Positions 7,729-47,920 of a stretch of 64,000 nucleotides of DNA are shown in pieces. The DNA is from an uncultured Gammaproteobacteria bacterium. Lineage in GTDB: Bacteria > Patescibacteriota > Microgenomatia > Levybacterales > UBA12049. The stretch lies in contig CAZCYO010000001.1 in NCBI GenBank assembly GCA_964503265.1, positions 25,119 through 89,118 of the forward strand. Direction: 5' to 3'. The stretch's first letter is position 1. Each line of letters starts with the position of its first letter. A program made the position numbers and the translations under genes. The notes beneath the pieces were generated by a model. That model searched no databases, had not been told where the DNA came from, and worked only from the letters and a program-made list of their open reading frames with translations.

Positions 7729-7752
7729 ATTCCCGTTTTCACGGGAATGACA
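7729..7752. repeat. hairpin repeat of GTCATTCCCG-loop-CGGGAATC family (copy identical to 47897..47920)
   Basis: gattcccgttttcacgggaatgaca. Confidence 0.7.
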
Positions 7753-7871
7753 GAACGTGAGATTCTGGTAAAGTCGCCCGCCTGTATCACTTTGTGAAAC
7801 AATGCGGACAGGTTGCTTTCCAGAATGACAATAAAGTGGGATTTATCACATGTGTTTGAAAGGGCAACCTT

Positions 7872-7899
7872 GGATCCTGAAAAAAAATTCAGGATGACA
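7872..7899. repeat. degenerate hairpin repeat of same family
   Basis: ggatcctgaaaaaaaattcaggatgaca (stem tcctga/tcagga + tgaca tail). Confidence 0.5.
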
Positions 7900-7908
7900 C
7901 ATTGGACT

Positions 7909-7934
7909 GGATTCCTGCCTTCGCAGGAATGACA
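7909..7934. repeat. hairpin repeat of same family; likely also mutS terminator
   Basis: ggattcctgccttcgcaggaatgaca directly 3' of mutS stop. Confidence 0.6.
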
Positions 7935-7941
7935 ATATAAG

Positions 7942-10584
7942 CTAGTCTGCGGTTTTGCGAACTTGGGAATCTGATTGGAAGAGTTTAATTTTTTGTTTGA
8001 GATCGGCGAGTTTGTTTAGGGCGTCTAATGGTGTGAGCTGGTGAATGTCGAGGTTCTCGAGTTCTTTATGGATGAAGTGGTCGGCCAGGTCTGAGATCGG
8101 TTTGTCAGTCAGTGTTTGCTCTCGTTCAAGAGATGAGTCGACGTGTCGATTTTCTAGGTTATGTAATATTTCTGTTGCTTTTATGATAACTTCTTCGGGG
8201 ACTCCTGCGAGTTTTGCGACTGCGACTCCGAAACTATGTGATGCTCCACCTGGTTGAATGGTGTGGAGGAAAATTGGTTGGCCGTCTGTTTCTTCTACTG
8301 CCATATGGAAATTTCTGATTTGGTGTGGATATTGTTCTTCGAGTGCTTGAAGTTCGTGATAGTGCGTCGCGAAAAGGGTTTTGGGAGATGGATTAATTGC
8401 TGTAACTAAATACTCAGCGACTGCCCAGGCGATGCTGATGCCGTCATAGGTACTGGTTCCTCGTCCAATTTCGTCCATCACGATAAGACTGTTTTTTGTA
8501 GCATGATGAAGAATGTGTGCCGTCTCAACCATCTCGACCATAAATGTTGAAAGACCAGAAGTGATCACATCTGATGCGCCACTTCGAACAAATATTCGAT
8601 CGACGATACTTAACTGTGCGCTTTCAGCTGGGATGAAACTACCGATTTGGGAAAGTAACACGAGAAGTGCAACTTGTCTGATATAGACGGATTTTCCTGC
8701 CATATTCGGTCCAGTGATGAGGAGTAATTGTTTGGTCGTGTTATCAAGAGACAGATCATTTGGAACGAATTGTTTATCTGAATCGAGTAATTTCTCAACT
8801 ACTGGATGACGGCCTCCTTTAATTTTCATTTCACCCGAATAGAGCAGTTTTGGGCGAATATATGCGTTTTTTTCAGCATTCGTGGCAAAACTGAGTAGGC
8901 AGTCGATAGTTGCGATGCTCCCAGCTGCTTCTTGAAGCACTGTCGTAAACGAGAGGATTTCTTTGAGCGTTTTCGTAAATAAGTCATATTCAATTTGATT
9001 TATTTTTTCCTCAGCGGTTAAGATAATTTCTTCGTGTTCTTTTAGTTCTGGAGTGATAAAGCGTTCGCCGTTAACTAAGGTCTGTTTACGCATATAATTT
9101 TCAGGGACACTCGTGAGATTTGATTTACTGATTTCGATATAAAAACCAAAGACGCGATTAAATCTCACTTTTAAGGATCCAATTCCTGTTCGCGTTCGTT
9201 CTTTTTTCTCAAGTTCAATTACCCATTCATGGCTGTGTGCGACGCGATCTCTCAGCCGATCTAATTCTTTATCAATTCCCTCGCGTATCATCCCACCGCT
9301 TCGAAGATCAATTGGTGGTTCATCGACGAAGGTTCGTGTAATAAGAGCTATCATGTCAGAAAGCTGAGAATAAATTCGTCTAGCACATTGGTTTACAAGT
9401 GTGTTACTAAGTGGGGATAGTAATTCTTTTACTGAAAGAACACTGATAATAGCTTGTTTGAGATTTATTATATCTCGTGCATTGCCGATATTAACTGAAA
9501 GGCGAGAAAGAGTTCGTTCTATATCTGGAATTTGCGTGAGCAAACTTTTTAGCATGAGACGTGTATCACTCATTGACAGTAGCTCATCAACTGCGTCATG
9601 TCGAAATATAATTTCCTCGCGATTTGTGAGTGGGTTTCTCAGCCATTGTTTGAGCTGTCTTCCACCCATTGGAGTATCTGTCGAATCGATCACTGAAAGA
9701 AGTGAACCATGTGTGTCGTGCTCACGAATGGTCGAAAATAATTCTAAGTTAATAATTGTTGATCGATCTAAGATAACCGAATCATCTGATGAACGTGCGG
9801 TTATTTTTTTAAGGTGAGAGATATTGTCTTTCTGTGTTTCTTTAAGGTATCCAAGGAGCGCTGCTGACGATTTAAGTGACAGTTCATATGTATCAATACC
9901 AAAACTGGCAAGGGTCGCAACTCCAAAATGTTTTTTTAATACCTCACGAGCATTTGTCGCATACACATCCCAATTCTGAAAACAAAATATATTCAGTCCA
10001 CGTTCACTACTGAGTAGTTTTAATAACTCTGCGTCATTATATAATTCTTCAGACAGAATACATTCGATGGGATGTAGACGTGATAATTCGTCTCGAAGTT
10101 GTTGTTTATTCTCATCAAGCATAAATTCTGCTGTCGTGAAATAGCCAGTCGAAATGTCTACAGTCGAGATTGCAAGCATATTTTTATCTAGGGCAAGACT
10201 AATTAAAAAATTATTCTCTTTTTTTTCAAGCGCTTTCTCATCGAGCATGGTTCCTGGTGTGATGACGCGTATCACTTCTCGATCGATAATGCCTTTTTTA
10301 TTTGGGAGGCTCATCTGTTCACAAATTGCGACTTTATATCCTGCTTTAACGAGCTTGGCGAGATATGTATCTACTGCATGGTAGGGTACACCTGCCATGG
10401 GGATGCGGCCATCTTTGCCTTTAGGTCTTCCGGTCAGTGTAATATTGAGAACTTTCGCGCCGATATATGCATCATCCATGAATAGCTCATAGAAGTCTCC
10501 CATACGATAAAACAACAAACAGTCCTCATAGTTTTTCTTAATTTCCATGTATTGTTTCATCATCGGAGTACTAAAGGTTTGCAT
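7942..10584 (-). CDS. mutS: DNA mismatch repair protein MutS
   Basis: N-term TPMMKQYMEIKKNYEDCLLFYRMGDFYELF mismatch-binding domain; Walker A GPNMAGKS; 880 aa. Confidence 0.92.
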   Translation of the reverse strand: MQTFSTPMMKQYMEIKKNYEDCLLFYRMGDFYELFMDDAYIGAKVLNITLTGRPKGKDGRIPMAGVPYHAVDTYLAKLVKAGYKVAICEQMSLPNKKGIIDREVIRVITPGTMLDEKALEKKENNFLISLALDKNMLAISTVDISTGYFTTAEFMLDENKQQLRDELSRLHPIECILSEELYNDAELLKLLSSERGLNIFCFQNWDVYATNAREVLKKHFGVATLASFGIDTYELSLKSSAALLGYLKETQKDNISHLKKITARSSDDSVILDRSTIINLELFSTIREHDTHGSLLSVIDSTDTPMGGRQLKQWLRNPLTNREEIIFRHDAVDELLSMSDTRLMLKSLLTQIPDIERTLSRLSVNIGNARDIINLKQAIISVLSVKELLSPLSNTLVNQCARRIYSQLSDMIALITRTFVDEPPIDLRSGGMIREGIDKELDRLRDRVAHSHEWVIELEKKERTRTGIGSLKVRFNRVFGFYIEISKSNLTSVPENYMRKQTLVNGERFITPELKEHEEIILTAEEKINQIEYDLFTKTLKEILSFTTVLQEAAGSIATIDCLLSFATNAEKNAYIRPKLLYSGEMKIKGGRHPVVEKLLDSDKQFVPNDLSLDNTTKQLLLITGPNMAGKSVYIRQVALLVLLSQIGSFIPAESAQLSIVDRIFVRSGASDVITSGLSTFMVEMVETAHILHHATKNSLIVMDEIGRGTSTYDGISIAWAVAEYLVTAINPSPKTLFATHYHELQALEEQYPHQIRNFHMAVEETDGQPIFLHTIQPGGASHSFGVAVAKLAGVPEEVIIKATEILHNLENRHVDSSLEREQTLTDKPISDLADHFIHKELENLDIHQLTPLDALNKLADLKQKIKLFQSDSQVRKTAD

Positions 10585-10776
10585 AGAAATTATTGTAGCA
10601 CCTTTAAATAGTAGTAAGCCTCAAGATTCAAGCTATAAAGAATGATGTTTTATTAATGAAGCGTGTGTCTTGTGGGTTCATTTCAGCTGATTCTTAATCA
10701 TTCCTTACGTAACCTTCTTCTTTCTCTTATATCTAGACGATATAGTAAGAAAACTCAAGGAAGGGGGGATGTATAT

Positions 10777-10995: not shown

Positions 10996-11077
10996 ATCAC
11001 AGATGTTCCCAAAACGGATACATACTGAGTATTGTAAGAGTTAGATAAGAAAGTACAAAACATACTCAGTTCTCTTC

Positions 11078-14932: not shown

Positions 14933-15051
14933 TGTTTAGATACGAATCTTTACTCTACCTGTATTTAACTTGTAATTTTCCTTATTGACAGCTGATTTTT
15001 AGAGATCTACGCTGATAAGGAAGAGCAAAAAAATTGCTCACTAAATATTTA

Positions 15052-15648
15052 ATGAAACACGCAAAAGCTGCCGTTGCTGTTTTTTTTATTACACTAATTT
15101 TTATTAGTTTTTCACCCACGAGAGCTCATGCAAATTTCTTCACTGATGTAGTAGATAAAGTTAAAAGTATTTTTGTAAAAGAAGATAAACCTCAACAAAC
15201 TGATTTGTCGATTGATTCACAAATTGTTCTCGCTCCTGGCGGTGATGTAAATAATAACGGGCAAATAGATTCTGGTGATATCGTACGGTTTATTTATAGT
15301 GTTAAAAATTCTTCAGATAAAACATATGCATTTTCAACTATTAAGACAAACATAAACCGCAACTCACTCAACTTTATTCATAATATTATCGGTGTTTCTG
15401 GACTAGCGGATAATGCTCGAGAAATAACTCTTCCGAATATCAGGTTATATCCTCATCAAGACCGGCTAATTAGTTTCGATGCGAGAGTTAATTATTTTGA
15501 AGATGAAGATCATCAAATCGAAACCACTGCTGTATTAGAAACTGCCGATAAGTCAGTAATTAAAGCTGCAAAAAAAGAAATTACCGCTAAAAAATTGAAG
15601 AAGGGAACAATCAATTCACTGTTTGATCGAAAAAATAGCAATGAATAA
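15052..15648 (+). CDS. secreted protein with a dockerin/EF-hand-like Ca-binding repeat
   Basis: Signal peptide MKHAKAAVAVFFITLIFISFSPTRAHA; DVNNNGQIDSGDIV matches dockerin repeat pattern; track ORF starts at TTG 15034. Confidence 0.4.
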   Translation: MKHAKAAVAVFFITLIFISFSPTRAHANFFTDVVDKVKSIFVKEDKPQQTDLSIDSQIVLAPGGDVNNNGQIDSGDIVRFIYSVKNSSDKTYAFSTIKTNINRNSLNFIHNIIGVSGLADNAREITLPNIRLYPHQDRLISFDARVNYFEDEDHQIETTAVLETADKSVIKAAKKEITAKKLKKGTINSLFDRKNSNE

Positions 15649-18600
15649 AAGAATTAAATTAGTTATAAGCATTGTACTAAATGCAACGTTACTCCTGACT
15701 TCGTATCTTCCTGGGTTCACCCTTTTATTTTCTCCTCAGATTGCAGATGCTGCAAATTCATGTGTTTCATACGGTGGTGGATCTGCTGCTGTTTTAAATG
15801 CCAAGGTTGGTGGTGTTGCCTTAGATCAAGCAGCCACATTTCTAGCTGATATGGATGATATTAAAGGGGCGTATTATGATTCTGTAAAAGATCGAATTGT
15901 TTTTATTGGTAAAGAAAACACATCACTTCCTGAATTTAATAAAGATGATTTAGCAGTAGCAATTAAATCTGTAATCTTTAAAGGAGTGCTTCCGGCTGTA
16001 AGTATCGAGAAATATGAGGGAGATCCTTTTGGTCCTAAACAACGTGCAATTTATTACGGAGGAATTGAGAATACACAATTTGGGAAAACCCTCATGGATG
16101 CAGACATAAAATTAAAAGAATTTGTACATGGATATGATAAAGATGAAAATCCAGTAAGCACATCAGTTTCAGGTTATGAATCACATTTCCAAAGATGGTT
16201 AGATCAAACTCCTGGGTTAACTGAATCTAATGCCAGCAGATGGGTAATAAGACCTAAATTAGTTTCTCTTAAAAGGGATACATCTACCAATTCTTTTGTT
16301 TTTAACGATGTGCAAATGGAAGTATATACGGAGGCGATGTCAGCATCTAATAGCGCAAAGTGGAATACAGCAGCAAGTGATTTTGCTACACATCATTCAT
16401 TACATTTCGATGATTTTGCACAAGAAATTCCAGCTTATGCCGATGCAAAACAGTTAGGAAAAATTGTAGCTGTAATCAAATGGCTTTCTGACAATGGGAT
16501 TCCTTCGGATTTTGCGTGGGCTTCTGATTATGCTCCTACTATTGTCTCAACACCAACTGAAGTAGATACCGTAATAACTCCAGAAATTGATGGATGGCGT
16601 TTATATGGAGGACTTGAGTATTACACGCCAAATACTTATACAACAGATAGTAGTACATCTGCTTCTTTTAAAACAGCTTCTGAGAATATAAATGCACCAA
16701 AGGAAGATATTCATTGGACGTTTACAAAAGATGGCCAAACATATGAATCTGTCGCTGTAGCAGCTGATGCATTTAGAAGTATTGGAGCATATAGTACTAG
16801 TGTTACGGATATGTCATTCCCAATGACCGGGGATTCAAGTCTCTCATTCACAAGATCATATTCTTCTTTCTCTGGAGCACAAAATGGGTGTGGTAGAGGA
16901 TGGTCGTTTATGCCGGCAGCGCTAACTGATAATAATCCTTCAGCTGATGGGGTTATTATTGGGACTTGTCCGAATGATACGTTTAATCATCGATATAAAG
17001 TAGCGTTTAATTCAAACACTGGAATAAGAGAAACATTTACTAACTACTGTGTGAGTAATACTAGTACGTACTTACCAGACGAAAGTGTTTTTCATTCGTC
17101 AATTACTGTTACTTCTACATCCAGCGCGTTAACTGTTTTAAAAGTAAAACAAAAAGATCAAAGTGAATATGAATTTCACGATATTTATTTAGATCCCAAT
17201 CAATATACAAGAACAAATATGCGGCTGGTGGCATATCGTGATAAAAATGGAAACAAAACGAATTACAATTATGATTCATCAAATAAACTAACAAGTATAA
17301 GTGATGATCGTGGACATCAACTAGCGATTACCTATAACGGAAGTAATTTAATTTCTTCTGTTAAGGACTGGACGAATAGAGAGGTTTCCTATGGATATGA
17401 CTCTCAAGGAAATTTAACTTCGGTGACTGATCCCAATGGGGAAACAAAACAGTACGGATATAACGACAATTATAAACTTAGCTCAATTACTGACAGATTA
17501 GGTCACACAATTCTTACTAATACATATAATGATGATGCGCGGTTAGCTACTCAAGTGAATTCAGGAAGTGTATCGGCTACCTTTACGTATGATGACACTC
17601 ATAGAGTTGCAACAACTTCATCCACTCTATCAAGAGTGCAAACAATTAAATATGATGAAAAAGCGAGGATACTAGAACAAATCGACCCACTTAATAATAA
17701 AACTACCTATACTTATGGAACCGAATATGCGCCTTTAACAGTTACAGATAGAAGAAATCATACAACCACAAATACCTATGACTCAAATGGAAATGTAACA
17801 TCTGTAACCGATCCATATAGCAAGACCGTTACTTACACCTATGATGGAAGTAATAGAATTACCCAAATTTCTGATGGTCGATATGGGGCTAGTCCCAAAG
17901 TTTCTAAATTCACTTACGATGGGTCCGGAAATCTGACTCAAGCATCCGAGTCAGGAAGGATTACTAACTTTACCTATGACTCATATGGAGAGATGTTAAC
18001 TAAAACTGATCCATTAACACATGTCATGACTTGGACGCGTGATTCATTTGGAAATAAACTAACAGAAACAAACGATTTGAGTAAAACTACTACGTTTGAA
18101 TACGACACATTAGCAAGGTTAAAGAAATCGACTGATTCAGAAGGAAAGTTCCAAACATTTTCTTATGATTACAATAACAATGTCTTAACGAGTACAAACT
18201 CAGCGGGAATAACGACAAATGAATATACGAAGGAAAATAAACTTAAGAAAGTTACATTACCTGATGGGACAATAACCCAGTTTACATATAACAATGCCGG
18301 GTCATTAAGTAGTGTCCAAGATGCTCTCAATAATACAACTACCTATGGGTATGACCAATATCAGAATATTACTTCTAACTTAAATGCACTTAATAAAACG
18401 ACTTCCTATACTTATGACAAGTTAAATAGAAGAACGGGGTCTACCACTCCACTTAGTAAAGTTACAGCACTTGAATATGATGCAAATGGGAATATCACTA
18501 AAAGAACAGATGCAAATAATAAAGATACGCTTTATCAATACGATAATTTAAATAGGCTTACTCAAATATCATATTCTGACAATAAAATAGTAAATTATAC

Positions 18601-21600
18601 CTATGATGATAGAGGAAATATGACATCGATGAGTGATAGTCTTGGAACAACCTCATACAGTTATGATATTTACAATCGGCTAACGCAGGTAACAGACCCA
18701 AATAGCAAAGTAGTGAGTTATTCCTATGATAATACTGATAATCTAACACAAATTACTTATCCAGGCAGTAAGGTAGTAGCATACGCATATGACAACGCTA
18801 ATCGTATAGAAACAATTACTGATTGGAATAGTCAGCAAACTACTTTTACCTATTTTGATAATGGTCTGATAAAGACTAAAACGCTTCCTAATGGAATAGT
18901 TAGTAGTTACACCTATGATAATGCAAATAGATTAAGTTCTGTTCAGCACACAAAAAGTTCAACTGTACTTGCAAAATTTGACTATGCAAGAAATGCAGTT
19001 GGAGGGATTATAACAGCGACTGAAAGTGGGACATTATTACCAACTACACCTACTTCTTCACCTTCTGCTGTTACTGTGAGTAATTTAGCTACAATGAGTA
19101 GCGTTACAAGTGCTAGTTCATATACGACATCTTCTATCTCACCATCAGCGAATAAATTATTATTACTGACAGTTGCTAGTAGGACAGGAATTACTGCTAA
19201 TCCAAACCAGCCAACCGTAACAGGAAATGGATTAACATGGGTTGCTGTCGATAGCCGAGTATATGATGATACGAGTAGTAGCAGAAGGAGAATAACTCTA
19301 TTTCGAGCAATGGGTACTAGCCCAACAAGTGGGACATTATCAATAGATTTTGGTGGACAGACACAGACAAATTATTCAGCTGTTGTTGATCAAGTAAGTG
19401 GTATGGATACATCTGGGACTAATGGATCAGGAGCTATCGTTCAATCTGCTAATAATTATGACAGTAGTAGTTCTTCATCTACATTATCTGTAACATTAGC
19501 AGCTTTTGGAAATACAAATAATGCAACATATGGAACATTTGCCAATGGAGATGGAGTTGCAGATCCGACTGCTGGTTCAGGATTCACCCAATATGGAGAA
19601 GTAACTGATTCAAATAATGCAATTAAAGTTTTATCAGAATTTAAGAGTACTAATGATACAAGTGTAGATATTGATTGGAATGATCCTTCGGAATTAGGGG
19701 GAATTGCTGTAGAAATAAAAGCGGGTAGTACAAGTAGTTACGAAACTGTCTCCGCATCTAATCTGATATCAGGAAGTACAACAAATGTGAATAGTTCCTC
19801 TACTGCATCTATTTCGCCAAGTGCAAATAAACTTGAGTTGTTAACTGTATCAAGCAGAACTGATATTTCTGCTAATCCAAATCAGCCAACTGTAACAGGA
19901 AATGGACTAACATGGGTTGCGGTAAACAGTATTGTTTATGATACTACTAGCACTAGTCGAAGAAGAGTTACCTTATTTAGAGCGATGGGTGCAAGCCCTA
20001 CATCTGGTGCACTTTCCATAGATTTTAGTGGACAAACGCAAACTGATATAACTTGGTCAGTGGATGAGTTATCTGGTGTCGATACAACAGGGACTAGTGG
20101 CTCAGGTGCAATTGTTCAATCTGCAACGAATAAAGATGAGACAGGATCCGCAACATCATTAGCAATTACCTTGTCTTCATTTGGAAATACAGCAAATGCT
20201 ACGTATGCCGGGATTGGTAAAGATGGAAATACTTCGGCTACAGCTGGTTCAGGTTTTACTATTTCTTCAGATGTTGCATCTTCGACAAATGTAGGTACTA
20301 GCACTCAATGGAAAAACACTAATGATACCTCAGTAGATATTTCATATGCTAGTTCTGTTTTAGTTGGAGGAATTGCTGTAGAAATTAAGGCGGGTACTTC
20401 ATCATCAGTATATCCGAATATCTCTTTATCGAATAAGACAACTGGATCTAACTCGTCTGGAGTTAATTCAGCAAATACATCATCTATTTCACCGTCTGCG
20501 AATAAATTACAGTTGTTAACTGTCGCTAGTAGAACGGCTATTACTGCAAATCCAAATCAACCTACAGTTTCAGGCAATGGATTAACATGGACTGCAGTAA
20601 ACAGCGTAGTATATGATGACTCAAGTAGCAGTAGAAGGAGAATCAGTGTATTTCGTGCGTTAGGAGCCAGTCCATCTTCAGGAGCAATTACAATAAGTTT
20701 TGGTGGGCAAACACAAACAGATATAGACTGGTCTTTAGATGAAGCAAGTAATGTTGATACAAGTGGAAGTAATGGATCCGGGGCAATAGTTCAATCAGCG
20801 ACAAATTATGATGCCAGTGGAACAGCATCTACTCTATCAGTTTCATTAAGTAGCTTCGGAAGTAATAGTAATGCAACATTTGGTGCTTTTGCAAATGGAT
20901 ATGGATTAGCAAATCCGACTGTAGGGTCAGGGTTTACAAAATATGGGGAACTCGCTGATTCAAATAATAATATAAAAGTTCTTACTGAATTTAAAAATAG
21001 TAATGATACTAGTATTGATATAAATTGGAATGATAATTCGGAACTCGGTGGTATAGCGATAGAATTAAAAGCTGCAGGAGTTCAATCAAATACTACTCAG
21101 TTCACATATGATTCAGTTCATAGATTACTGACAACGACATTTCCAGCTAATTCATTTGTGTACACATATGACGCGGTAGGAAATAGATTAACGAATACTA
21201 AAGATGGAGTACAGACTACAGCAACATTTAACGATGATAATAAGCTAACGCAATTTGGTTCTACGAGTTACTCGTATGATAACAATGGAAATAGGACTGC
21301 AGCTGGAAGTAAGACAATCGCATATAATTTAGAAAATAAGGTTGCTACTCAATCTGCGAGTGGGGATCCAACGATAGAGTTTACATATGATGGAAATGGG
21401 AAGAGGTTAGGGCAGAAAGTAAATGGGACACAGACTAGAAGATATATTAATGACATCTCAGGAAGTCTAGAAAAAGTACTTATCACACAAGATCTCCAAA
21501 ATAGCACAGATAACTACTACCTCTATGGAAACGGCCTGGTTAGTGAAGGAGGAGTAAGTTCAGGTAATCGTAATTATTATCTCGAGGATGGATTAGGCAA

Positions 21601-22246
21601 CATACGAGCTATTACAGATAGCAGCGGAAACTCACTCGATACCATGACATATGATCCCTATGGAAATCTCCTCACCGGATCAAGCTCAGCAGAATTTAAA
21701 TTCAAAGGAGAACAACTAAACACCGATACAAGCCTCTACTACATGCGTGCCAGATACTATGATCCAACCACAGGAACATTCACCTCAAAAGACCCGCACG
21801 AAGGAGATCTAAATAATCCAAACTCACAGAATGGCTATGACTATGCAAATGGTGATCCTATTAATCTGAATGATCCATCTGGAGAGCTAGTATTTGCAGA
21901 TGATGCAATTTTTATTGGAGCAGCAGCGTGTGCAGGAGTGTATGTTTATGCTACTAATCCAGCTGTTAAATCTGCTGTAAATACAACTGTCAGCACGACA
22001 ATTAATCAAATTATAGGAGGTATAAATACTTTACTTGATGAATCTAGAAATCCAAAACAAGATACAAAGTTGAGTGAAGGTGAGATAAAGAAACTACAAA
22101 ACGGTGGTCAAGATATTCATGATATTAAAGGCGGTGATAGTGGCAAGGATCTTTTTAAAGATCCAAAGACGGGCGAAATTTATATTAAGCCTAAAAACGG
22201 TGCAGGACCAGGTGACGAAACAGGGTTAAATATCAATGATTTTTAA
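15623..22246 (+). CDS. giant RHS/YD-repeat polymorphic toxin protein with Sec signal peptide
   Basis: Signal peptide; dozens of YD repeats (YTYD..GN.T..TD); RHS core YYMRARYYDPTTGTFTSKDP then DPSGEL; ~115-aa variable C-terminus; alternative ATG at 15641 (MNKRIKL...). Confidence 0.85.
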   Translation: MIEKIAMNKRIKLVISIVLNATLLLTSYLPGFTLLFSPQIADAANSCVSYGGGSAAVLNAKVGGVALDQAATFLADMDDIKGAYYDSVKDRIVFIGKENTSLPEFNKDDLAVAIKSVIFKGVLPAVSIEKYEGDPFGPKQRAIYYGGIENTQFGKTLMDADIKLKEFVHGYDKDENPVSTSVSGYESHFQRWLDQTPGLTESNASRWVIRPKLVSLKRDTSTNSFVFNDVQMEVYTEAMSASNSAKWNTAASDFATHHSLHFDDFAQEIPAYADAKQLGKIVAVIKWLSDNGIPSDFAWASDYAPTIVSTPTEVDTVITPEIDGWRLYGGLEYYTPNTYTTDSSTSASFKTASENINAPKEDIHWTFTKDGQTYESVAVAADAFRSIGAYSTSVTDMSFPMTGDSSLSFTRSYSSFSGAQNGCGRGWSFMPAALTDNNPSADGVIIGTCPNDTFNHRYKVAFNSNTGIRETFTNYCVSNTSTYLPDESVFHSSITVTSTSSALTVLKVKQKDQSEYEFHDIYLDPNQYTRTNMRLVAYRDKNGNKTNYNYDSSNKLTSISDDRGHQLAITYNGSNLISSVKDWTNREVSYGYDSQGNLTSVTDPNGETKQYGYNDNYKLSSITDRLGHTILTNTYNDDARLATQVNSGSVSATFTYDDTHRVATTSSTLSRVQTIKYDEKARILEQIDPLNNKTTYTYGTEYAPLTVTDRRNHTTTNTYDSNGNVTSVTDPYSKTVTYTYDGSNRITQISDGRYGASPKVSKFTYDGSGNLTQASESGRITNFTYDSYGEMLTKTDPLTHVMTWTRDSFGNKLTETNDLSKTTTFEYDTLARLKKSTDSEGKFQTFSYDYNNNVLTSTNSAGITTNEYTKENKLKKVTLPDGTITQFTYNNAGSLSSVQDALNNTTTYGYDQYQNITSNLNALNKTTSYTYDKLNRRTGSTTPLSKVTALEYDANGNITKRTDANNKDTLYQYDNLNRLTQISYSDNKIVNYTYDDRGNMTSMSDSLGTTSYSYDIYNRLTQVTDPNSKVVSYSYDNTDNLTQITYPGSKVVAYAYDNANRIETITDWNSQQTTFTYFDNGLIKTKTLPNGIVSSYTYDNANRLSSVQHTKSSTVLAKFDYARNAVGGIITATESGTLLPTTPTSSPSAVTVSNLATMSSVTSASSYTTSSISPSANKLLLLTVASRTGITANPNQPTVTGNGLTWVAVDSRVYDDTSSSRRRITLFRAMGTSPTSGTLSIDFGGQTQTNYSAVVDQVSGMDTSGTNGSGAIVQSANNYDSSSSSSTLSVTLAAFGNTNNATYGTFANGDGVADPTAGSGFTQYGEVTDSNNAIKVLSEFKSTNDTSVDIDWNDPSELGGIAVEIKAGSTSSYETVSASNLISGSTTNVNSSSTASISPSANKLELLTVSSRTDISANPNQPTVTGNGLTWVAVNSIVYDTTSTSRRRVTLFRAMGASPTSGALSIDFSGQTQTDITWSVDELSGVDTTGTSGSGAIVQSATNKDETGSATSLAITLSSFGNTANATYAGIGKDGNTSATAGSGFTISSDVASSTNVGTSTQWKNTNDTSVDISYASSVLVGGIAVEIKAGTSSSVYPNISLSNKTTGSNSSGVNSANTSSISPSANKLQLLTVASRTAITANPNQPTVSGNGLTWTAVNSVVYDDSSSSRRRISVFRALGASPSSGAITISFGGQTQTDIDWSLDEASNVDTSGSNGSGAIVQSATNYDASGTASTLSVSLSSFGSNSNATFGAFANGYGLANPTVGSGFTKYGELADSNNNIKVLTEFKNSNDTSIDINWNDNSELGGIAIELKAAGVQSNTTQFTYDSVHRLLTTTFPANSFVYTYDAVGNRLTNTKDGVQTTATFNDDNKLTQFGSTSYSYDNNGNRTAAGSKTIAYNLENKVATQSASGDPTIEFTYDGNGKRLGQKVNGTQTRRYINDISGSLEKVLITQDLQNSTDNYYLYGNGLVSEGGVSSGNRNYYLEDGLGNIRAITDSSGNSLDTMTYDPYGNLLTGSSSAEFKFKGEQLNTDTSLYYMRARYYDPTTGTFTSKDPHEGDLNNPNSQNGYDYANGDPINLNDPSGELVFADDAIFIGAAACAGVYVYATNPAVKSAVNTTVSTTINQIIGGINTLLDESRNPKQDTKLSEGEIKKLQNGGQDIHDIKGGDSGKDLFKDPKTGEIYIKPKNGAGPGDETGLNINDF
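19135..21075 (+). repeat. three tandem ~670-nt (~224-aa) intragenic repeats inside the RHS gene
   Basis: SISPSANKL.LLTV.SRT.I.ANPNQPTV.GNGLTW.AV.S.VYD..S.SRRR...FRA.G.SP.SG...I.F.GQTQT ... GGIA.E.KA recurs at ~19135, ~19808, ~20482. Confidence 0.7.
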
Positions 22247-22993
22247 TTGCGTGATATAATGCTTCATATGTTCAACGATCCTGGGCTAAAAAACGAGAGT
22301 ACTGCGTGGCTTAATATTATTGGATTTGATATGAATCCAGATGAAATAACTAAAGAAGTCGGCGTTAATCCAACAAAAACTAGAATAAAAGGTGAATACC
22401 GAACTGTCGGTACAAAAACGCCGAGAAAAATTATTAATAAGGAGAATCAATGGATTTTAGAGTCAAGTTTATCTCGTAAGTTACCATTAGAAAAGCATTT
22501 GGAGCATCTGCTTGATAAAATAAAATTCCATAAAGACAGCTTTAAATATCTTACAAAAAGCTGCACTGTTGAGCTGAATAGTGCTTTATATTACTACGAA
22601 GCCAATCCAGGGCTTTCTTTTGAAACTGAACTTCTTAAGGAAATAGCAGATTTTGATATTTCATTAAATCTTGATATATACTGTCTAGCTGGAACAGTTC
22701 TTGAGCTAGAACAACCGAAAGTTGTTAGGCATTTAAAAAAACATTTGTCTGAAGTAAAGTTTCTTTTGAATGGTACTAAAGAAAATGAAGTAAATTATAT
22801 TTTAGAAAGTTTGAAGGGTATAGAAGAATCCGCCTATGCTATTCAGAGTGATTATATGCACGATTTGATTTGGACTGAAAAGCTCGAAGATGAAAGGTAC
22901 GAAGAAACTCTATTAAAAATAGCTAAGGAAATAAATAACATTAATAACTATGTAAAGAAATCTAAATATTTATCTTCATTAGTGAATAAATGA
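22247..22993 (+). CDS. candidate immunity protein, DUF4279-like N-domain
   Basis: Starts immediately after RHS stop (TTG; ATG at 22259/22268); ...PDEITK..G..PTK...KGE...G.......W.L.S... pattern recalled from DUF4279; family assignment unverified. Confidence 0.4.
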   Translation: MRDIMLHMFNDPGLKNESTAWLNIIGFDMNPDEITKEVGVNPTKTRIKGEYRTVGTKTPRKIINKENQWILESSLSRKLPLEKHLEHLLDKIKFHKDSFKYLTKSCTVELNSALYYYEANPGLSFETELLKEIADFDISLNLDIYCLAGTVLELEQPKVVRHLKKHLSEVKFLLNGTKENEVNYILESLKGIEESAYAIQSDYMHDLIWTEKLEDERYEETLLKIAKEINNINNYVKKSKYLSSLVNK

Positions 22994-23108
22994 GTGATTT
23001 AGTATTTAATATTTTTATTAGTTTATTTGGACTATTTTTTGCTATACAGTTTAAAAAAATGGAGAAAGAGATTCTTAAACCAATAGGTTTATAGTATAAT
23101 CAAAAAAA

Positions 23109-23594
23109 ATGAGTCGTTTAAAAATTGGCGATATTTTCGAAATCCCATTATCTAATAACAAAAAAGCATATGGACAGTATATTTATTTAGATTTTTTTGG
23201 ACCTTTAATACGGGTATTTAATCTCATAGTAGATGTAAATAAGCAGGTGGACATAGATGTTATTACCTCTTGCAAATTACTTTTCCCCCCAGTTTATACA
23301 GGTGTTAAAGCTGCAATCAAAAATGGCATGTGGAGCGTGATAGGGAACAAAGAAATACATGAATTTGTATTTCCGGGGTTTGTAAGAACATTTCAAGACT
23401 TAAATACAGGTGATGCAACAATTTGGTTTTTATGGGATGGGAAAAACAACGTACGAATTGGTAAAAAACTTTCTGATGATATGAAAAAATTTGAGTTTCT
23501 TGCGATATATTCTCCCGATTTAATTGAAAAAAGGATTATTAGCAAGGAAAAACCATATCAAGATTTAATTCTTACAAATAAATTAGCAAATTAG
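23109..23594 (+). CDS. hypothetical protein, candidate immunity/orphan immunity gene
   Basis: 161 aa, KIGDIFEIPL..NKKAYGQYI N-terminus similar in style to predicted immunity families; context only. Confidence 0.3.
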   Translation: MSRLKIGDIFEIPLSNNKKAYGQYIYLDFFGPLIRVFNLIVDVNKQVDIDVITSCKLLFPPVYTGVKAAIKNGMWSVIGNKEIHEFVFPGFVRTFQDLNTGDATIWFLWDGKNNVRIGKKLSDDMKKFEFLAIYSPDLIEKRIISKEKPYQDLILTNKLAN

Positions 23595-23595
23595 A

Positions 23596-23928
23596 ATGAT
23601 ACTCTCTCTACCTGCACGAATACGACAAGAATCAATAAAAAAACTTGTTGAAGTAGCAACCTTAATGGAATCAAATAAAATTAATTTGATAGAAGGTAGT
23701 AGACATATTAATAGATTACGTCATTATACAGAAGATGCTAATGATGATCTTTTTACTATTTTTATTTTAGTGAACTCAGACACAGATGATATACCACTTA
23801 ACGAAACCAGAAAAAACTTTAGTAAAGCACTTTTAGAAGAAAAAGATAAAAAAATGGTTGATTACTTAGCTAATATGAAACCTACTATTTTGCAAGGTTG
23901 TAAAGAAATTATAAAAAAGTTCTCCTAA
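23596..23928 (+). CDS. hypothetical small helical protein
   Basis: 110 aa, starts 2 nt after previous stop. Confidence 0.3.
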   Translation: MILSLPARIRQESIKKLVEVATLMESNKINLIEGSRHINRLRHYTEDANDDLFTIFILVNSDTDDIPLNETRKNFSKALLEEKDKKMVDYLANMKPTILQGCKEIIKKFS

Positions 23929-23987
23929 AATAATATAGCGATTTGAAACCGTCTCTAAAATTAACCTCTGCTATAATACCATCCATT

Positions 23988-24512
23988 ATGAAAATTAGTT
24001 TTATTACAAAGTTATCTGTTGAAAACTGTATTAAAAAAATTAGTGATAACGCTGAGAGAAATACGTTTATGGCGAGCTTTTCTCGTTTATGGGATTACGA
24101 AAAGACATTTTTTTATCGTATAAAGGGGAATACTTTTCGACTAGAAAAAGTTAATTATTATAGAAACTCATTCAAACCAGTCTTTTATGGAAAATTAATT
24201 AAAGAAAATAATGGAACGAGGATAGAAGGTTATTTTGGAATTCATCAAGCTGTTAAACTGTTCATGATATTTTGGTTTCTAGGGGTAACAATTTTGAGCC
24301 TTATCCCCGCACTTAATGCGATTGATGATCTTTTTATTCCTTCAAAAATAGTTCCCGGCCATCTTACTGCAAATCCGCTTTTGGCATTGTCTATACCGTT
24401 TATATTTATTGGATTTGGAATATTAATAATTTTTATCGGAAAATATTTTGGGGAAAAAGATGAAAATGAAATAGTCGAATTTATTAAATCTAAGCTAGAA
24501 GTAATTTCTTAA
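23988..24512 (+). CDS. hypothetical membrane protein (2 C-terminal TM)
   Basis: ATG 23988 preceded by tataat; track ORF begins at TTG 23943. Confidence 0.3.
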   Translation: MKISFITKLSVENCIKKISDNAERNTFMASFSRLWDYEKTFFYRIKGNTFRLEKVNYYRNSFKPVFYGKLIKENNGTRIEGYFGIHQAVKLFMIFWFLGVTILSLIPALNAIDDLFIPSKIVPGHLTANPLLALSIPFIFIGFGILIIFIGKYFGEKDENEIVEFIKSKLEVIS

Positions 24513-25207
24513 TATACTTGAATATTTTTTGAATCTGTTACATTAACCGTGTTACTGCACTTATCTTCCTCTCCTGTCACTATCACACTTTTCCCTTCAT
24601 ACAAATTCGGAGAAAATGAGCTATTTATCGGGAGATGGAGGACTGAGCCATTTTGCTTAATTAATACTACTCTTTGTGTGTCTTTATTCTGGACTTGCTT
24701 TCCCTGAAGTATCGTTAGCATGTCTGTCAGGATAGATACTACTGGAATTCTTTTCGCAGTATCTACTGCTGTTAAAATCCGGAGGGTTCCAACCTCTGAT
24801 TGTATACCTTTCGAACATAATGCATGTGTTCCGCCAAAGAATCCAAATGTTCCAATCACTAAGACAATTCCCGCGAGTCCTAAAGATCCTTTCAATGTAA
24901 AACTAAAGGCTTTTTGTTTTTTAATTTCTTCAAGCAGTGCTGAAATTTTACGCAGAGGATTGCCGACATGGACATCAAGAAGATCGTCATTTGTTACTTT
25001 GTGATCGACTCCTATGCCATGGGGGAGAAGGGCATCTAGTACTGGATACTTTTGGCTAGTAGTTATGGGTGATTGGTTGTTTGGCAGAAAGGATGGATCT
25101 GTGTGATCAACGTGAACAAAATGGCCGTGTGCATCATGAGGATGCTTGGGGCCAGATAGTGTTCTACCATCAATATCTTCTGATAATTTAGCAGATGACT
25201 CATCCAT
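24509..25207 (-). CDS. His-rich single-TM protein, unknown function
   Basis: HPHDAHGHFVHVDH N-terminal His cluster, central TM, beta-rich C-domain. Confidence 0.35.
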   Translation of the reverse strand: MDESSAKLSEDIDGRTLSGPKHPHDAHGHFVHVDHTDPSFLPNNQSPITTSQKYPVLDALLPHGIGVDHKVTNDDLLDVHVGNPLRKISALLEEIKKQKAFSFTLKGSLGLAGIVLVIGTFGFFGGTHALCSKGIQSEVGTLRILTAVDTAKRIPVVSILTDMLTILQGKQVQNKDTQRVVLIKQNGSVLHLPINSSFSPNLYEGKSVIVTGEEDKCSNTVNVTDSKNIQVY

Positions 25208-25292: not shown

Positions 25293-25457
25293 ATATGGGG
25301 GATATGGTCAAAGTATGGGCCAGATATGGCTAGGCTTAAAGTACCATAGTTATGGTGATATGGTGGCGATATGGTTATTTGGGCGTCAAATCAAGCTAAT
25401 TATGGTGTCGATATAATTTCTAACTTGTCACCACAAATTGATATGGTGGAAATATGG
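25293..25457. promoter_or_regulatory. array of ~10 (A/T)TATGG(T/C) direct repeats, many spaced ~11 bp
   Basis: atatgg at 25293,25302,25324,25358,25369,25441,25452 plus gtatgg 25313 and tatgg 25351,25401; lies upstream of 24509..25207 and 3' of the OmpR-type RR gene. Confidence 0.5.
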
Positions 25458-25554
25458 CTTGAATAGGTGATTAGTTATTTGTTACTAGTGATTAGACAAA
25501 AAGGAAAATCATATAGATTCTCCCGGTGTACACTGAGGGGAATGACATAGTGGA

Positions 25555-31053: not shown

Positions 31054-31079
31054 GTCATTGCGAGCGAAGCGCGGCAATC
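31054..31079. repeat. hairpin element related to GTCATT...AATC family
   Basis: gtcattgcgagcgaagcgcggcaatc between convergent lon and SDR genes. Confidence 0.45.
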
Positions 31080-31114: not shown

Positions 31115-31900
31115 CTATTTCTGTCCTCTTTTAACCACTTTAGCGAGAAATGATCGTGGCATGAGTCTCGTGAGTGTGATCCCAAGTTTACTTGAAAGGT
31201 TGGTGAGTACTACCCTTTTTCCTTTCATCATTCCTTCGTAACCAATTTTTGCGACAGTCTCTGCGTCCATAACACCATTTTTAAATAGCAATGTATTACC
31301 GACGTTTGCTCGCGTGGCAAATCCAGTTTTTGAGGGTCCTGGACAGAGTGCTGTTACAGTCACACCTGTTCCTACAGTTTCTTCAGCGAGTGATTCAGAA
31401 AAAGAAAGAACATAGGCTTTCGTAGCATAATAGACGGCCATATAGGGACCAGGGAAAAATGCTGCAGTTGATGCGACGTTGAGAATTTTTCCTTCTTTTC
31501 TTTTTAGCATATCTTTAAGAAACAGTTTTGAAAGAATAGTAAGTGTGGTTATATTTAACTGAATTTCATTTAACTCTTCATCAAGTGGTACTTCAGTAAA
31601 TTCTCCATGTGTTGCAAACCCTGCATTATTTATGAGAATGTCTATCTCAATTCCTGCCTCGGATAATTCTTTATATATTTGCTCACCAGACTTTGCGTCT
31701 GATAAATCTTTAGCGATAATTCTCACAAATATTTCGTTTTCTTTTTGGAGATGAGTCGCGATGTCCTGTAATTTTTCTTTATCACGCGCGACAAGTACGA
31801 GGTCATAATTGTCTTTCGCGAACAGCTTGGCAAACTGATATCCAAAGCCGCTCGTTGCACCAGTGATAAGCGCAGTTCCTGCAGAGTGGGGAGTTTTCAT
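31115..31900 (-). CDS. short-chain dehydrogenase/reductase (SDR)
   Basis: ALITGATSGFGYQFAKLF Rossmann motif, NNAG, catalytic YxxxK (YYATK). Confidence 0.85.
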   Translation of the reverse strand: MKTPHSAGTALITGATSGFGYQFAKLFAKDNYDLVLVARDKEKLQDIATHLQKENEIFVRIIAKDLSDAKSGEQIYKELSEAGIEIDILINNAGFATHGEFTEVPLDEELNEIQLNITTLTILSKLFLKDMLKRKEGKILNVASTAAFFPGPYMAVYYATKAYVLSFSESLAEETVGTGVTVTALCPGPSKTGFATRANVGNTLLFKNGVMDAETVAKIGYEGMMKGKRVVLTNLSSKLGITLTRLMPRSFLAKVVKRGQK

Positions 31901-32479: not shown

Positions 32480-32802
32480 TCTGTATGTATATGGAAATCT
32501 TGAGAGTAATGACTCTTACGAAGATTCTACATGTTCATCAGAATGACATACATAGGATTTGATGAAAATAGAACTGCTTAAATAGAATAACACTGTCTAA
32601 AAAAAAGAAAAGATACGCGGTCAAAAAATAAAATAGGTAGGTATCTTTATCTTAAACTTCTTTCGAGGTAATTAAAAATTAAGCAGATATATTTTCTCAA
32701 ATCTGCTACTGAGGATATGTGTATTATAGCGTATTCATTTCTCTTTGTCAAACTAGAGGATATGTATTCATATCATTTTCATACATTTAGCCACGATCTC
32801 CA

Positions 32803-42516: not shown

Positions 42517-42589
42517 TGACCCCACGGGAATTCGAATCCCGGTTCTCAGAATGAGAATCTGATGTCCTAGGCCACTAGACGATGGGGCC
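42517..42589 (-). tRNA. tRNA-Glu (anticodon CUC)
   Basis: Hand-folded cloverleaf: acceptor GGCCCCA/TGGGGTC, D-arm GTCT..GGAC, anticodon stem TCAGA/TCTGA loop TTCTCAT, T-arm CGGGA-TTCGAAT-TCCCG, discriminator A, no encoded CCA. Confidence 0.7.
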
Positions 42590-44093: not shown

Positions 44094-44142
44094 ATTTTAT
44101 TCACCTCTCATTCCTAGATTAATTATCTACAATAGTATGTGA

Positions 44143-45299: not shown

Positions 45300-45341
45300 A
45301 CTTGCGTATGGCATAGAGCAAATGGCGTATAGTTATAATAC

Positions 45342-46526
45342 ATGATTTTTTTAAAACAGTTATCTAAAACAGAAAAAATAGTCCTTGGGTTTTATATCAT
45401 CGCTTCTGTACTTCTTCTTCTTTATTCTTTCACGCAAATAGATTTAGGACTTGTTATATCGCGGTTTCCCTTTCTTTATGCTTTTGAGAAAGCATTTCAG
45501 AATATCGGATACTTTAATCGTCCACTTTCGACGCTTCTTTTTATTCTATTAATACTTCTTTTCTCAGGGATGTATCTTAATGTCGTTGGATCAATTAAAC
45601 ATATTTCGCGAAAAGCGATCTGGATGATTGTTCTCTCAGTTTCGGTTATTCTTTTTCTATCGTATAACGCTTTCTCTTATGACTTATTTAACTATATTTT
45701 TGATGCAAAAATTCTGACACAGTATCATGCAAATCCATATCTCCACAAAGCGTTAGATTATCCAGCTGACCCGATGCTTTCGTTTATGCACTGGACACAC
45801 AGAGTATATCCGTATGGGCCAGTATGGCTTGCTGTCACTGTACCCTTATCATACTTAGGAATGGGACTATTTCTCCCGACGTTTTATCTATTCAAATTAC
45901 TTATGCTCGCATCATATGTAGGAACGACGTATGTTATTGGAAAAATTCTTCGAACTATTTCGCCAGAATCTGAAACAGCTGGTTTGGTAATATTCGCGCT
46001 CAACCCTTTGGTTATTTTTGAAACGCTTATCTCAGCACATAACGATATCTTTATGATGTTTCTCATGGTATTGTCGCTTTATTTACTTCTTAAAAAGAAC
46101 ATGATATGGAGTGTTTTTATCACTGTTCTTTCAATTGCTACGAAATTTGCGACACTATTTTTGTTACCGATGTATGTTTTATTATTCTTAAAGCGAAAAA
46201 ATATAACTGAGAAATACTGGAATACGATGATGATTTTGGGAGTAGCATTGATGTTTCTGGCGGTACTAGTCGTATCTTACCGATCTAATTTCCAACCATG
46301 GTATCTTCTCTATGTTTTGCCTTTTATCTCTCTCATAACGAAAAACAAATCATGTATCTATCCGTCATTTTTTCTCTCAATTATCGCACTTGGAAATTAT
46401 CTGCCATATTTATATATGGGAACATGGACTGATCCAGTGATGCAGTATTTGTTTTGGGTAAATAGTATTTGTGGATTAATCAGTGTTATTTGGTTTTCAA
46501 TACTTGTTACAAAGAACTCTAACTAA
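45342..46526 (+). CDS. polytopic membrane protein, GT-C-like (DUF2029/GT87-like?)
   Basis: ~11 TM with extracytoplasmic loop motif after TM1. Confidence 0.4.
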   Translation: MIFLKQLSKTEKIVLGFYIIASVLLLLYSFTQIDLGLVISRFPFLYAFEKAFQNIGYFNRPLSTLLFILLILLFSGMYLNVVGSIKHISRKAIWMIVLSVSVILFLSYNAFSYDLFNYIFDAKILTQYHANPYLHKALDYPADPMLSFMHWTHRVYPYGPVWLAVTVPLSYLGMGLFLPTFYLFKLLMLASYVGTTYVIGKILRTISPESETAGLVIFALNPLVIFETLISAHNDIFMMFLMVLSLYLLLKKNMIWSVFITVLSIATKFATLFLLPMYVLLFLKRKNITEKYWNTMMILGVALMFLAVLVVSYRSNFQPWYLLYVLPFISLITKNKSCIYPSFFLSIIALGNYLPYLYMGTWTDPVMQYLFWVNSICGLISVIWFSILVTKNSN

Positions 46527-47800
46527 TATCTTTTAATTTCTTTGTTCTTATTTCCTTGATCTTGCCAGATTTGATAAAAGTAGGCTTTTATATCTCCTTC
46601 ACTATAACTAATTGCACCGTATTTAGTAATTTGCTCTCTTGCAGCAATTCGCTGATGATCAATTCCTTTGTCTGTTGGAAGTTCCAAAAGTGCTTTGACG
46701 TTATAAAAACCATAATAAAGCCAATATACACTAAAAAGTGTTATGAAAATTGGCCGATTAATGTTAATTAATCGATACATGATATATACGATCATATAGA
46801 TCACAAGTGGCATGTGAAGTAAAAAATAATAGTCAGAAATACTTCCTTTATATAACGTAAATCCGATGACTGGAACGGCAAACCATGGAATCATCAGAAG
46901 GCCGAGTTGTTGTAGTTTTTTATCTTTCTCAAACGCTGTAAGAATAAAAAATACAGCTGGAATAATATATTTTAACATTGCTAATTGTTTAAAGAACAGG
47001 AGAGCTTCGAATTGAACAAGCGACTGTGGAAGTCGAAAAAAGAAAAAACGTAAATGAAATGATTGAGTATATGAACTATTAAAATCTTTTATTCGATATG
47101 TTTCCCCATGTGCTCCCTGTATATCGAAAATGATGGTCGGAATAAAGAAAAGAACATAGACAAAAAAACTTGGAATAATATACTTGATACTTTGTTTCCA
47201 GTCTTTAAAAAATATCAGTGAAAGTACAATAATTGGTGGAATAAAAAGAAATGTAAAGTGAAGATGAAAAAATAGTCCCGATAACGCTGCAAGGATAGGG
47301 AACCAGTAATATTTTTTTTGATACAGCTGGTAAATTCCATAATACAGGAGAATAGAAACAGCCGGAACAAGTGAGACGTTATATTGAATTTGACTTTGGT
47401 GGATCAGATAAAAACTAAAAATATAGAGTGTTGATGCAGCGACAGCAACCTTTTCTGAAAATAGTTTTTTCGAAACGAAATAAAATACACAGATATTGAT
47501 AATGTACGCGATCATGACAGAATAATTACTGGCAACAGGGTCCAGATTCGTGAAATAGAAAAAAGGCGCTAGGAAGTAAAAATAAAATGGTCCAATTGGA
47601 ATACGTCCAGCTCCTGTTATGGGGCCATCTAGGACGAGTTGTCCGCGAAGAAGATCTCGGACTTTCCATGCATCTCGAGCCTGATCCCACCCAAATTCCT
47701 GAGTTACGTTAATAGCATGGAATCGAAGATAAAAACCAATAAGAACGAGAAGAAGAAAGAGAAGATAATATTTGTAGCGGAATATAAAAGCCATCTTCAT
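46523..47800 (-). CDS. GT-C membrane glycosyltransferase (PMT/ArnT GT39/83-like)
   Basis: F.WDQARDAWKVRDLL...GP first-loop motif, ~11 TM. Confidence 0.5.
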   Translation of the reverse strand: MKMAFIFRYKYYLLFLLLVLIGFYLRFHAINVTQEFGWDQARDAWKVRDLLRGQLVLDGPITGAGRIPIGPFYFYFLAPFFYFTNLDPVASNYSVMIAYIINICVFYFVSKKLFSEKVAVAASTLYIFSFYLIHQSQIQYNVSLVPAVSILLYYGIYQLYQKKYYWFPILAALSGLFFHLHFTFLFIPPIIVLSLIFFKDWKQSIKYIIPSFFVYVLFFIPTIIFDIQGAHGETYRIKDFNSSYTQSFHLRFFFFRLPQSLVQFEALLFFKQLAMLKYIIPAVFFILTAFEKDKKLQQLGLLMIPWFAVPVIGFTLYKGSISDYYFLLHMPLVIYMIVYIMYRLININRPIFITLFSVYWLYYGFYNVKALLELPTDKGIDHQRIAAREQITKYGAISYSEGDIKAYFYQIWQDQGNKNKEIKRY

Positions 47801-47860
47801 AAGTGTATCATTGTGCTTCTTTTATTGCATCTGCAGCGCTAGACACTCATAGAAAACTCT

Positions 47861-47885
47861 GTCATTCCCGACTTGATCGGGAATC
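47861..47885. repeat. hairpin repeat GTCATTCCCG-loop-CGGGAATC
   Basis: gtcattcccgacttgatcgggaatc. Confidence 0.7.
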
Positions 47886-47896
47886 TTACCAAATAG

Positions 47897-47920
47897 ATTC
47901 CCGTTTTCACGGGAATGACA
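47897..47920. repeat. hairpin repeat identical to 7729..7752
   Basis: gattcccgttttcacgggaatgaca. Confidence 0.7.

Follow-up and report, generated by a model that had tools for sequence, protein, structure and literature searches.

Dispersed hairpin repeats in a 64-kb segment of a probable candidate phyla radiation genome are probably of the NTS/SRM class

Results

Hairpin copies and their intergenic setting

Short palindromic hairpin repeats occur at four intergenic places in the 64-kb stretch of contig CAZCYO010000001.1 that was analysed here as a whole (the window), an ordinary piece of chromosome with a G+C content of 36.7%. The first place is located between mutS (7942-10584, minus strand) and mutL (5504-7282, minus strand), and the second directly past an OmpR-type response-regulator gene (25555-26226, minus strand). 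The third lies between lon (28610-31012, plus strand) and a short-chain dehydrogenase gene (31115-31900, minus strand), while the fourth is the spacer that separates two divergent PMT_2 glycosyltransferase genes (46523-47800, minus strand, and 47928-49514, plus strand). The best named relatives of the MutS protein (60-65% identity) are proteins from Saccharimonadales, Roizmanbacteria and the "Patescibacteria group". For the GIY-YIG protein of the window, too, the best named relatives are patescibacterial (Daviesbacteria). Judged by such names on proteins from metagenome-assembled genomes (MAGs), together with the G+C content and a long run of glycosyltransferase genes (44.5-66 kb), the host probably belongs to the candidate phyla radiation (CPR).

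The search for copies covered the 64-kb window and recovered the following hairpins, with coordinates given in the GTC-first orientation and folds calculated for single-stranded DNA (ssDNA):

7728-7751 (24-nt core; 28-nt unit 7725-7752), minus strand: canonical copy, GTCATTCCCGTGAAAACGGGAATC, 28-mer TGTCATTCCCGTGAAAACGGGAATCTAT; 8-bp stem, GAAA loop; ssDNA fold -7.8 kcal/mol, z -4.3
7873-7898, minus strand: variant copy, GTCATCCTGAATTTTTTTTCAGGATC; ssDNA fold -5.5 kcal/mol
7910-7933, minus strand: variant copy, GTCATTCCTGCGAAGGCAGGAATC followed by CAG; ssDNA fold -7.7 kcal/mol, z -4.45; starts 8 nt past the mutS stop codon
25264-25288, minus strand: variant copy, GTCATCCCAGACTTGATCTGGGATC followed by CAG; ssDNA fold -7.2 kcal/mol
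25517-25547, minus strand: decayed eighth copy, GTCATTCCCCTCAGTGTACACCGGGAGAATC; fold no better than that of shuffled sequences; starts about 8 nt past the stop codon of the OmpR-type regulator gene
31054-31079, plus strand: divergent copy, GTCATTGCGAGCGAAGCGCGGCAATC; interrupted stem of 5+3 bp, GCGAAGC core; weak ssDNA fold of -5.5 kcal/mol, z -1.2; starts 42 nt past the lon stop codon
47861-47885, plus strand: left member of a doublet, GTCATTCCCGACTTGATCGGGAATC; ssDNA fold -7.6 kcal/mol, z -4.5
47896-47919 (core; unit 47893-47920), minus strand: right member of the doublet, GTCATTCCCGTGAAAACGGGAATC, 28-mer TGTCATTCCCGTGAAAACGGGAATCTAT

An earlier note on this DNA had pointed out seven copies, all of which are present at most 1 nt from where it had placed them. 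The two identical 24-mers that it had reported were confirmed, and the identity between 7725-7752 and 47893-47920 in fact reaches 28 nt. Copy-by-copy inspection of the window agreed with its description of variable loops, both orientations and paired copies, and every copy is intergenic, as it had stated. The two copies that it had placed in the divergent spacer between GT-C genes are the convergent pair 47861/47896 between the PMT_2 genes. The members of this pair are separated by a 10-nt spacer, and the pair can be folded as a single long hairpin (-33.8 kcal/mol).

The copies share a common plan that consists of GTC, a stem starting with AT, a loop, a complementary arm ending in AT, and a C. 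The loop measures 4-6 nt, except for 12 nt in the interrupted 31054 copy. The GTC-AT...AT-C frame is kept in 8 of 8 copies, each of which has the head YGTCAT (Y, pyrimidine). Perfect 8-bp stems are found in six copies, and the ssDNA folds of six copies range from -5.5 to -7.8 kcal/mol. Four stem variants coexist in the window, and the loop CTTGA is common to the 25264 and 47861 copies. The repeated unit measures 24-33 nt, with no similarity between copies past the hairpin. A ninth candidate at 32523-32547 (minus strand), whose stem is 5 bp long and which failed to fold, was rejected on these grounds, and the occurrence of GGAATGAC at 16813, inside an Rhs gene, was considered a chance match. 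An Rfam scan of the window returned tRNA only, with no RNA family at the hairpins, and no additional copy was found in a further 2.25 kb to the right of the window.

The number of copies was compared with that in shuffled sequences. A strict pattern gave 4 matches in the window versus 0.00 in shuffles, while a general rule (GTC, a perfect stem of at least 7 bp, a loop of 3-10 nt, and C) gave 6 matches versus 0.19 expected (largest value 3) in 200 dinucleotide shuffles. Under this general rule no other 3-nt head had more than 2 matches in the window. Since both searches far exceeded the shuffles, a chance origin of the window hairpins is excluded.

Resemblance to the Neisseria Transformation Sequence

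Chenal et al. (2025; PMC11893778) described the Neisseria Transformation Sequence (NTS), CGTCATTCCCGCGMAVGCGGGAATCYRG, which contains the older dRS3 repeat, and they defined a degenerate Ssn-related motif (SRM) that is present across phyla. There, SsnA is presented as a 94-aa single-domain GIY-YIG protein of CDD family cd10448 that binds the hairpin solely as ssDNA and solely in the forward orientation, cuts a few nt upstream of it, and leaves the RNA form unbound. The GTC before the palindrome is most critical for cutting and the C after it for binding, while the loop is free. The same source reports SsnA homologues in 81% of the genomes in which SRMs number more than 200, gives NTS-ssnA-NTS as the layout around the nuclease gene, and mentions dRS3 in its introduction as a known phage recombinase target. 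A literature search returned no other paper on the hairpin motif beyond PMC11893778.

When the window was searched with the published SRM pattern, HGTCWYN(0-2)YYVSBRHN(0-5)WNVSBRGN(0-2)RNCYNB (PMC11893778), both TGTCATTCCCGTGAAAACGGGAATCTAT sites matched, which amounts to 2 matches versus 0.11 expected. The dRS3 pattern ATTCCC-N8-GGGAAT is matched exactly by 7728-7751 and 47896-47919 (ATTCCCGTGAAAACGGGAAT), but not by the other copies.

The same hairpins in other genomes

An exact scan with the 24-mer, using one genome per species, located it at no fewer than 120 places in about 20 phylum-level lineages as judged by record titles. The corresponding stretches (at least 120, 880 kb, L002-L121) are the basis of all cross-genome counts, which apply to the matches listed. 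The lineages include Chloroflexota, Desulfobacterota, Nitrospirota, Ignavibacteriota, Bacteroidota, Cyanobacteriota, Verrucomicrobiota, Spirochaetota, many Patescibacteria, a Vibrio and Neisseria polysaccharea. The other window copies also have counterparts elsewhere: a 24-mer identical to the 7910-7933 copy occurs in other phyla, the stem class of the 7873-7898 copy was found in Daviesbacteria and other loci, and a Verrucomicrobiota MAG (L072) has a unit identical to the 47861 copy that forms a pair with the 24-mer.

Within the 120 stretches, units of the form GTC-hairpin-C numbered 253, versus at most 31 for any other 3-nt head, and 120 of the 253 have stems other than that of the query, with window variants among them. 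Over 261 units, the flanking positions were Y at -1 in 96%, Y at +1 in 98%, A at +2 in 84% and G at +3 in 55%, which is in agreement with the NTS flanks. Covariation was assessed on 58 distinct 24-mers that were chosen by their flanks alone. Paired cells made up 94.6% versus 80.9% in shuffles, and double-sided changes were seen in 53 cells versus 9.7 in shuffles, values that were reached in 0 of 500 shuffles. The stem is thus supported by compensatory variation.

By a crude open reading frame (ORF) proxy, 68% of the units are intergenic, while the non-coding share is about 14%. The orientation of 178 intergenic units relative to the neighbouring gene was near even (89 versus 66, and 85 versus 72), and this speaks for an element that acts on DNA and not on RNA. 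Neighbouring units within 150 nt of each other were convergent in 67 of 87 pairs. Such convergent pairs have a variable spacer of 12-35 nt, usually CAG...CTG, and their members usually differ in stem; the window pair 47861/47896 shows the same convergent arrangement with its 10-nt spacer.

One of the stretches, from an Oculatellaceae cyanobacterium MAG (L113, 3661-4255), carries a gene for a 96-aa Ssn-like GIY-YIG protein (3846-4178, minus strand) with six hairpins around it, four of which lie to one side and two to the other. The exact window 24-mer accounts for three of the six, and this layout equals the NTS-ssnA-NTS arrangement of the 2025 paper. The 24-mer was present in just 13 of the 2.9 million viral contigs of IMG/VR, so that phages are no obvious reservoir. 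In two of these contigs with the same source genome (L156, 109-132, and L161, 133-156) it lies about 150 nt or less from the contig end, which would agree with prophage integration at a site of this kind.

A GIY-YIG gene within the window

The sole GIY-YIG gene of the window (1662-1913, plus strand) encodes an 83-aa protein with Pfam domain PF01541. Its best matches in the PDB are the UPF0213 proteins 1ywl (1.5e-14) and 1zg2, structures to which the Ssn-like protein of L113 gave no match; the two GIY-YIG proteins are 36% identical to each other. No hairpin is located within 5.8 kb of 1662-1913, and its orthologue is syntenic in a sister species that lacks the hairpins. Homologues with 65-83% identity were found in Daviesbacteria, Paceibacteria and other MAGs, an unusual degree of conservation in such a small protein. 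There were no hairpins near these homologues in nine Patescibacteria loci, and one unit was found 1.5 kb off in Daviesbacteria loci. Being UPF0213-like, unflanked by hairpins and syntenic where hairpins are absent, this protein is probably not the hairpin partner and was rejected as a candidate.

History of the hairpins in this lineage

In a 97-98% identical population, represented by two short contigs, both copies of the glycosyltransferase spacer and the lon copy are still present: the right doublet copy is retained in a 97% identical strain (L131) and the lon copy in a 98% identical one. Two sister species with about 75-79% nucleotide identity were compared over largely syntenic DNA, 20.7 kb in L125 and 33.2 kb in L132 with L153. 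No canonical unit was found in this DNA, in which about 6 units would be expected at the window density. The lon copy is absent from L125, where the corresponding spacer measures 33 nt. The mutS-mutL spacer is 659 nt long in the window (7283-7941) versus 48 nt in L132, and the extra DNA contains three hairpins and a small gene with 52% G+C. The hairpins past the regulator gene are located where the conserved gene order yields to an Rhs toxin island, a position at which the sister species carry other genes. A metagenome scan with MutL returned one locus, 35% identical.

Since the sister species lack canonical units and the 97-98% identical strains keep the covered copies, the hairpins were mostly gained recently, after the split from the sister species. 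The empty sites in the sister species are too diverged for base-by-base alignment. The decayed 25517-25547 copy has a similarly decayed counterpart (GTCATTC...GAATC) at the same place in L125, which indicates that at least one insertion is old. Several hairpins are situated at or beside points where gene order or spacer length departs from that of the sister species, and this siting beside variable DNA echoes reports on dRS3 and NTS in Neisseria.

Features adjoining the hairpins

The ORF in the mutS-mutL insert (7381-7617, plus strand) encodes 78 aa and has a G+C content of 52%, versus 38-41% in its neighbours. It is preceded by a promoter-like site (7313-7341) and a GAGGAGG ribosome-binding site and is followed by a stem-loop with a T-run (7670-7703), with three hairpins adjoining. 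No Pfam match was obtained for it and no homologue was present in any fetched locus. In the Rhs/YD-repeat toxin island (15034-25207), DUF4279, Imm26 and DUF2489 genes come after the gene for a 2207-aa protein that ends in Ntox33, and hairpins 25264 and 25517 are located at the junction of this island with the conserved regulator gene. Both the mutS-mutL mini-gene and the Rhs island edge are candidate inserted cassettes.

The hexamer ATATGG (CCATAT on the minus strand) occurs seven times in one orientation within 165 nt (25293-25457). This group, which may be a regulator binding array, is flanked by hairpins 25264 and 25517 and lies downstream of the OmpR-type gene and upstream of a gene with no known function (24509-25207).

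In the Logan assembly, a contig from this strain (SRR12487046_121238) begins at 7908, which is on the border of the hairpin cluster, 2 nt ahead of copy 7910-7933. Its calculated end is at about 42544, inside a tRNA gene (42517-42589), and both breaks look repeat-induced.

Discussion

In this study, we analysed eight hairpin copies in a 64-kb window and conclude, with a probability of about 0.85, that they are DNA hairpin repeats of the NTS/SRM class. This assignment is based on their sequence, structure, flanks and distribution, together with one replicated gene association, the six hairpins around the Ssn-like gene of L113. Membership of the class combined with the Ssn mechanism is still likely, although we hold it with less confidence than membership as such.

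The unit would be an oriented element of about 28 nt, consisting of Y-GTC, an 8-bp stem starting with AT, a loop of 4-6 nt, an arm ending in AT, and C-Y-A. It would act at the DNA level: once the GTC strand becomes single-stranded, in transforming DNA or in replication and repair intermediates, it would fold into a hairpin that a small nuclease of the Ssn family (single-domain GIY-YIG, cd10448, about 90-100 aa) would bind, nicking the DNA a few nt upstream. In Neisseria, incoming ssDNA is thereby shortened or destroyed and recombination modulated. A convergent doublet would present a forward unit on each strand, so that either strand might be recognisable. We infer that a cognate Ssn, encoded outside the window, cuts the copies described here.

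Several observations weigh against this assignment. The published SRM pattern (PMC11893778) matches just 2 of the 8 copies, while the others differ in stem or loop composition. Hairpin-preserving changes of the palindrome abolish cutting by the Neisseria enzyme according to the same paper (PMC11893778), and the four stem variants may therefore not be substrates of one enzyme; some could be decayed copies or belong to different enzymes. The 64-kb window contains no cd10448-type ssn gene, as judged by a motif scan and by phmmer with the Ssn-like protein. With the findings on the 1662-1913 gene, this means that a cognate ssn, if present, lies outside the window. Finally, the association with an Ssn gene was reproduced in 1 of the 120 loci listed.

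It is conceivable that the hairpins are relics without a current function, which came with recombined foreign DNA or with a lost Ssn-linked selfish element and persist because they are harmless. The window indeed has no ssn gene, copies 25517 and 31054 are decayed or fold weakly, the decayed copy is shared with a sister species as expected from slow erosion, and apparently foreign DNA adjoins the copies at the 52%-G+C mini-gene (7381-7617) and the Rhs island edge. We nevertheless consider this unlikely. An SsnA homologue is encoded in 81% of genomes with more than 200 SRMs (PMC11893778), which speaks against mere remnants. In addition, six window copies have perfect 8-bp stems and exact flanks, and two of the copies do not differ over 28 nt, observations that point to recent spread or purifying selection. 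A role at the RNA level, in which 3'-end stem-loops terminate transcription or shield the upstream mRNA from 3' exonucleases, is known from repetitive extragenic palindromic (REP) elements of Escherichia coli, which can act in this way. It would suit the three sites that lie 8-42 nt past the stop codons of mutS, the OmpR-type regulator gene and lon in sense orientation, as well as the stable RNA folds (-11.6 and -13.2 kcal/mol) and the one copy that a pattern scan flagged as terminator-like. This flagged stem (47897-47916) was called on both strands owing to its A/T-rich context and was rejected as an intrinsic terminator. Most copies have no U-tract after them, no terminator-like site was called in 7200-8000, and the 47861/47896 pair is situated in a divergent promoter region rather than at a gene 3' end. 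Moreover, the RNA form is not bound by SsnA (PMC11893778), the gene orientation of the 178 intergenic units is near even, and the conserved single-stranded flanks GTC and C-Y-A would have no role in a terminator. We regard an RNA-level function of the hairpins as improbable.

The lowest probability is assigned to an Ssn-independent origin as REP-type repeats, or as REP doublets forming hairpins (REPINs), that are moved by a REP-associated tyrosine transposase (RAYT, a Y1 HUH transposase) or by another recombinase, for example the IS110/Piv-type enzyme for which Neisseria dRS3 serves as an integration site. Repeats of the REP/RAYT type have a conserved 5' GTAG or GTGG followed by an imperfect palindrome, but the head in the window is GTC, with YGTCAT in every copy, and a strict RAYT-type REP was rejected on this basis. 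The predominance of convergent doublets (67 of 87 pairs) and the folding of the window doublet as one REPIN-like hairpin (-33.8 kcal/mol) fit such movement, and dRS3 is a known phage recombinase target (PMC11893778, introduction). Against this, the Pfam results for the window genes include no Y1, RAYT, IS110 or other transposase, the sole gene that was found flanked by units encodes a GIY-YIG protein (L113), and the 24-mer is present in only 13 of 2.9 million viral contigs. The hairpins could also operate without a canonical Ssn, either with the UPF0213-type GIY-YIG protein encoded 6 kb away as their partner, or as self-spreading convergent doublets of two stem variants that mark, and perhaps mediate, cassette insertion. 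Such a variant has a small chance of being correct, comparable to that of an RNA-level role; if true, the Ssn/SRM system would also include another nuclease subfamily, a second one, or have a role in cassette acquisition.

With the hairpins assigned to the NTS/SRM class, an otherwise unexplained repeat family is identified. The class was described in 2025, and our findings are extensions of it rather than a new category. They comprise a probable CPR host, the coexistence of stem variants and a recent gain beside inserted DNA. Relative to the accessible text of the 2025 paper, what is added is that one exact 24-mer occurs in about 20 phylum-level lineages, that the units are usually arranged as convergent doublets whose two members differ in stem and lie 12-35 nt apart, and that hairpins were recently gained in one lineage, several of them at or beside differences in gene order or spacer length. 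If the Ssn mechanism is true, these elements would mark cut sites for incoming ssDNA, which bears on the control of gene exchange in ultra-small bacteria. On the practical side, repeats of this kind cause breaks in short-read assemblies, of which 7908 is an example, and create spurious ORFs.

The earlier note had described the family as REP/MITE-like. Miniature inverted-repeat transposable elements (MITEs) are units of 50-500 bp with terminal inverted repeats and target-site duplications. The window hairpins resemble them in being small, non-coding, dispersed and intergenic, but a MITE was rejected since the units measure 24-33 nt, have no terminal inverted repeats around a body, and show no flanking direct repeats. 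The REP part of the description stands as far as the REP/REPIN-like architecture is concerned and fails for RAYT-type REPs, given the GTC(A) head and the lack of a Y1 transposase in the window. Like REPs, REPINs and bacterial interspersed mosaic elements (BIMEs), the hairpins are short extragenic palindromes with a conserved single-stranded head that occur in both orientations and as inverted doublets. The NTS/SRM class further shares with these systems that an ssDNA hairpin is recognised by a small nuclease-type protein, which is often flanked by its own repeats; its partner family is GIY-YIG rather than HUH Y1 transposase, and the window contains no RAYT.

The dRS3 repeats and Neisseria intergenic mosaic elements (NIMEs) provide a further comparison. 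The window hairpins lie at junctions of variable or inserted DNA, at the mutS-mutL insert and the Rhs island edge, much as dRS3 flanks variable genes. They differ in that other window copies have different stems or a 9-nt centre, that no longer RS-type repeat is found between the units, and that the window has no filamentous prophage or Piv-type recombinase.

The NTS/SRM class of the 2025 paper resembles the window hairpins in its architecture. Differences exist: the window loop is GAAA while that of NTS is CGMAVG, four stem variants are present, no cd10448 gene was seen within the 64 kb, and the host is probably a member of the Patescibacteria/CPR with a small 37%-GC genome, known here from its sequence. 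With NTS (CGTCATTCCCGCG..GCGGGAATCYRG) the hairpins share the core GTCATTCCCG-loop-CGGGAATC, the 5' GTC, the 3' C followed by Y-R/A (R, purine), a stem of 8 bp and a short loop whose sequence is free. In both systems the elements are present in multiple copies and are intergenic, oriented and clustered.

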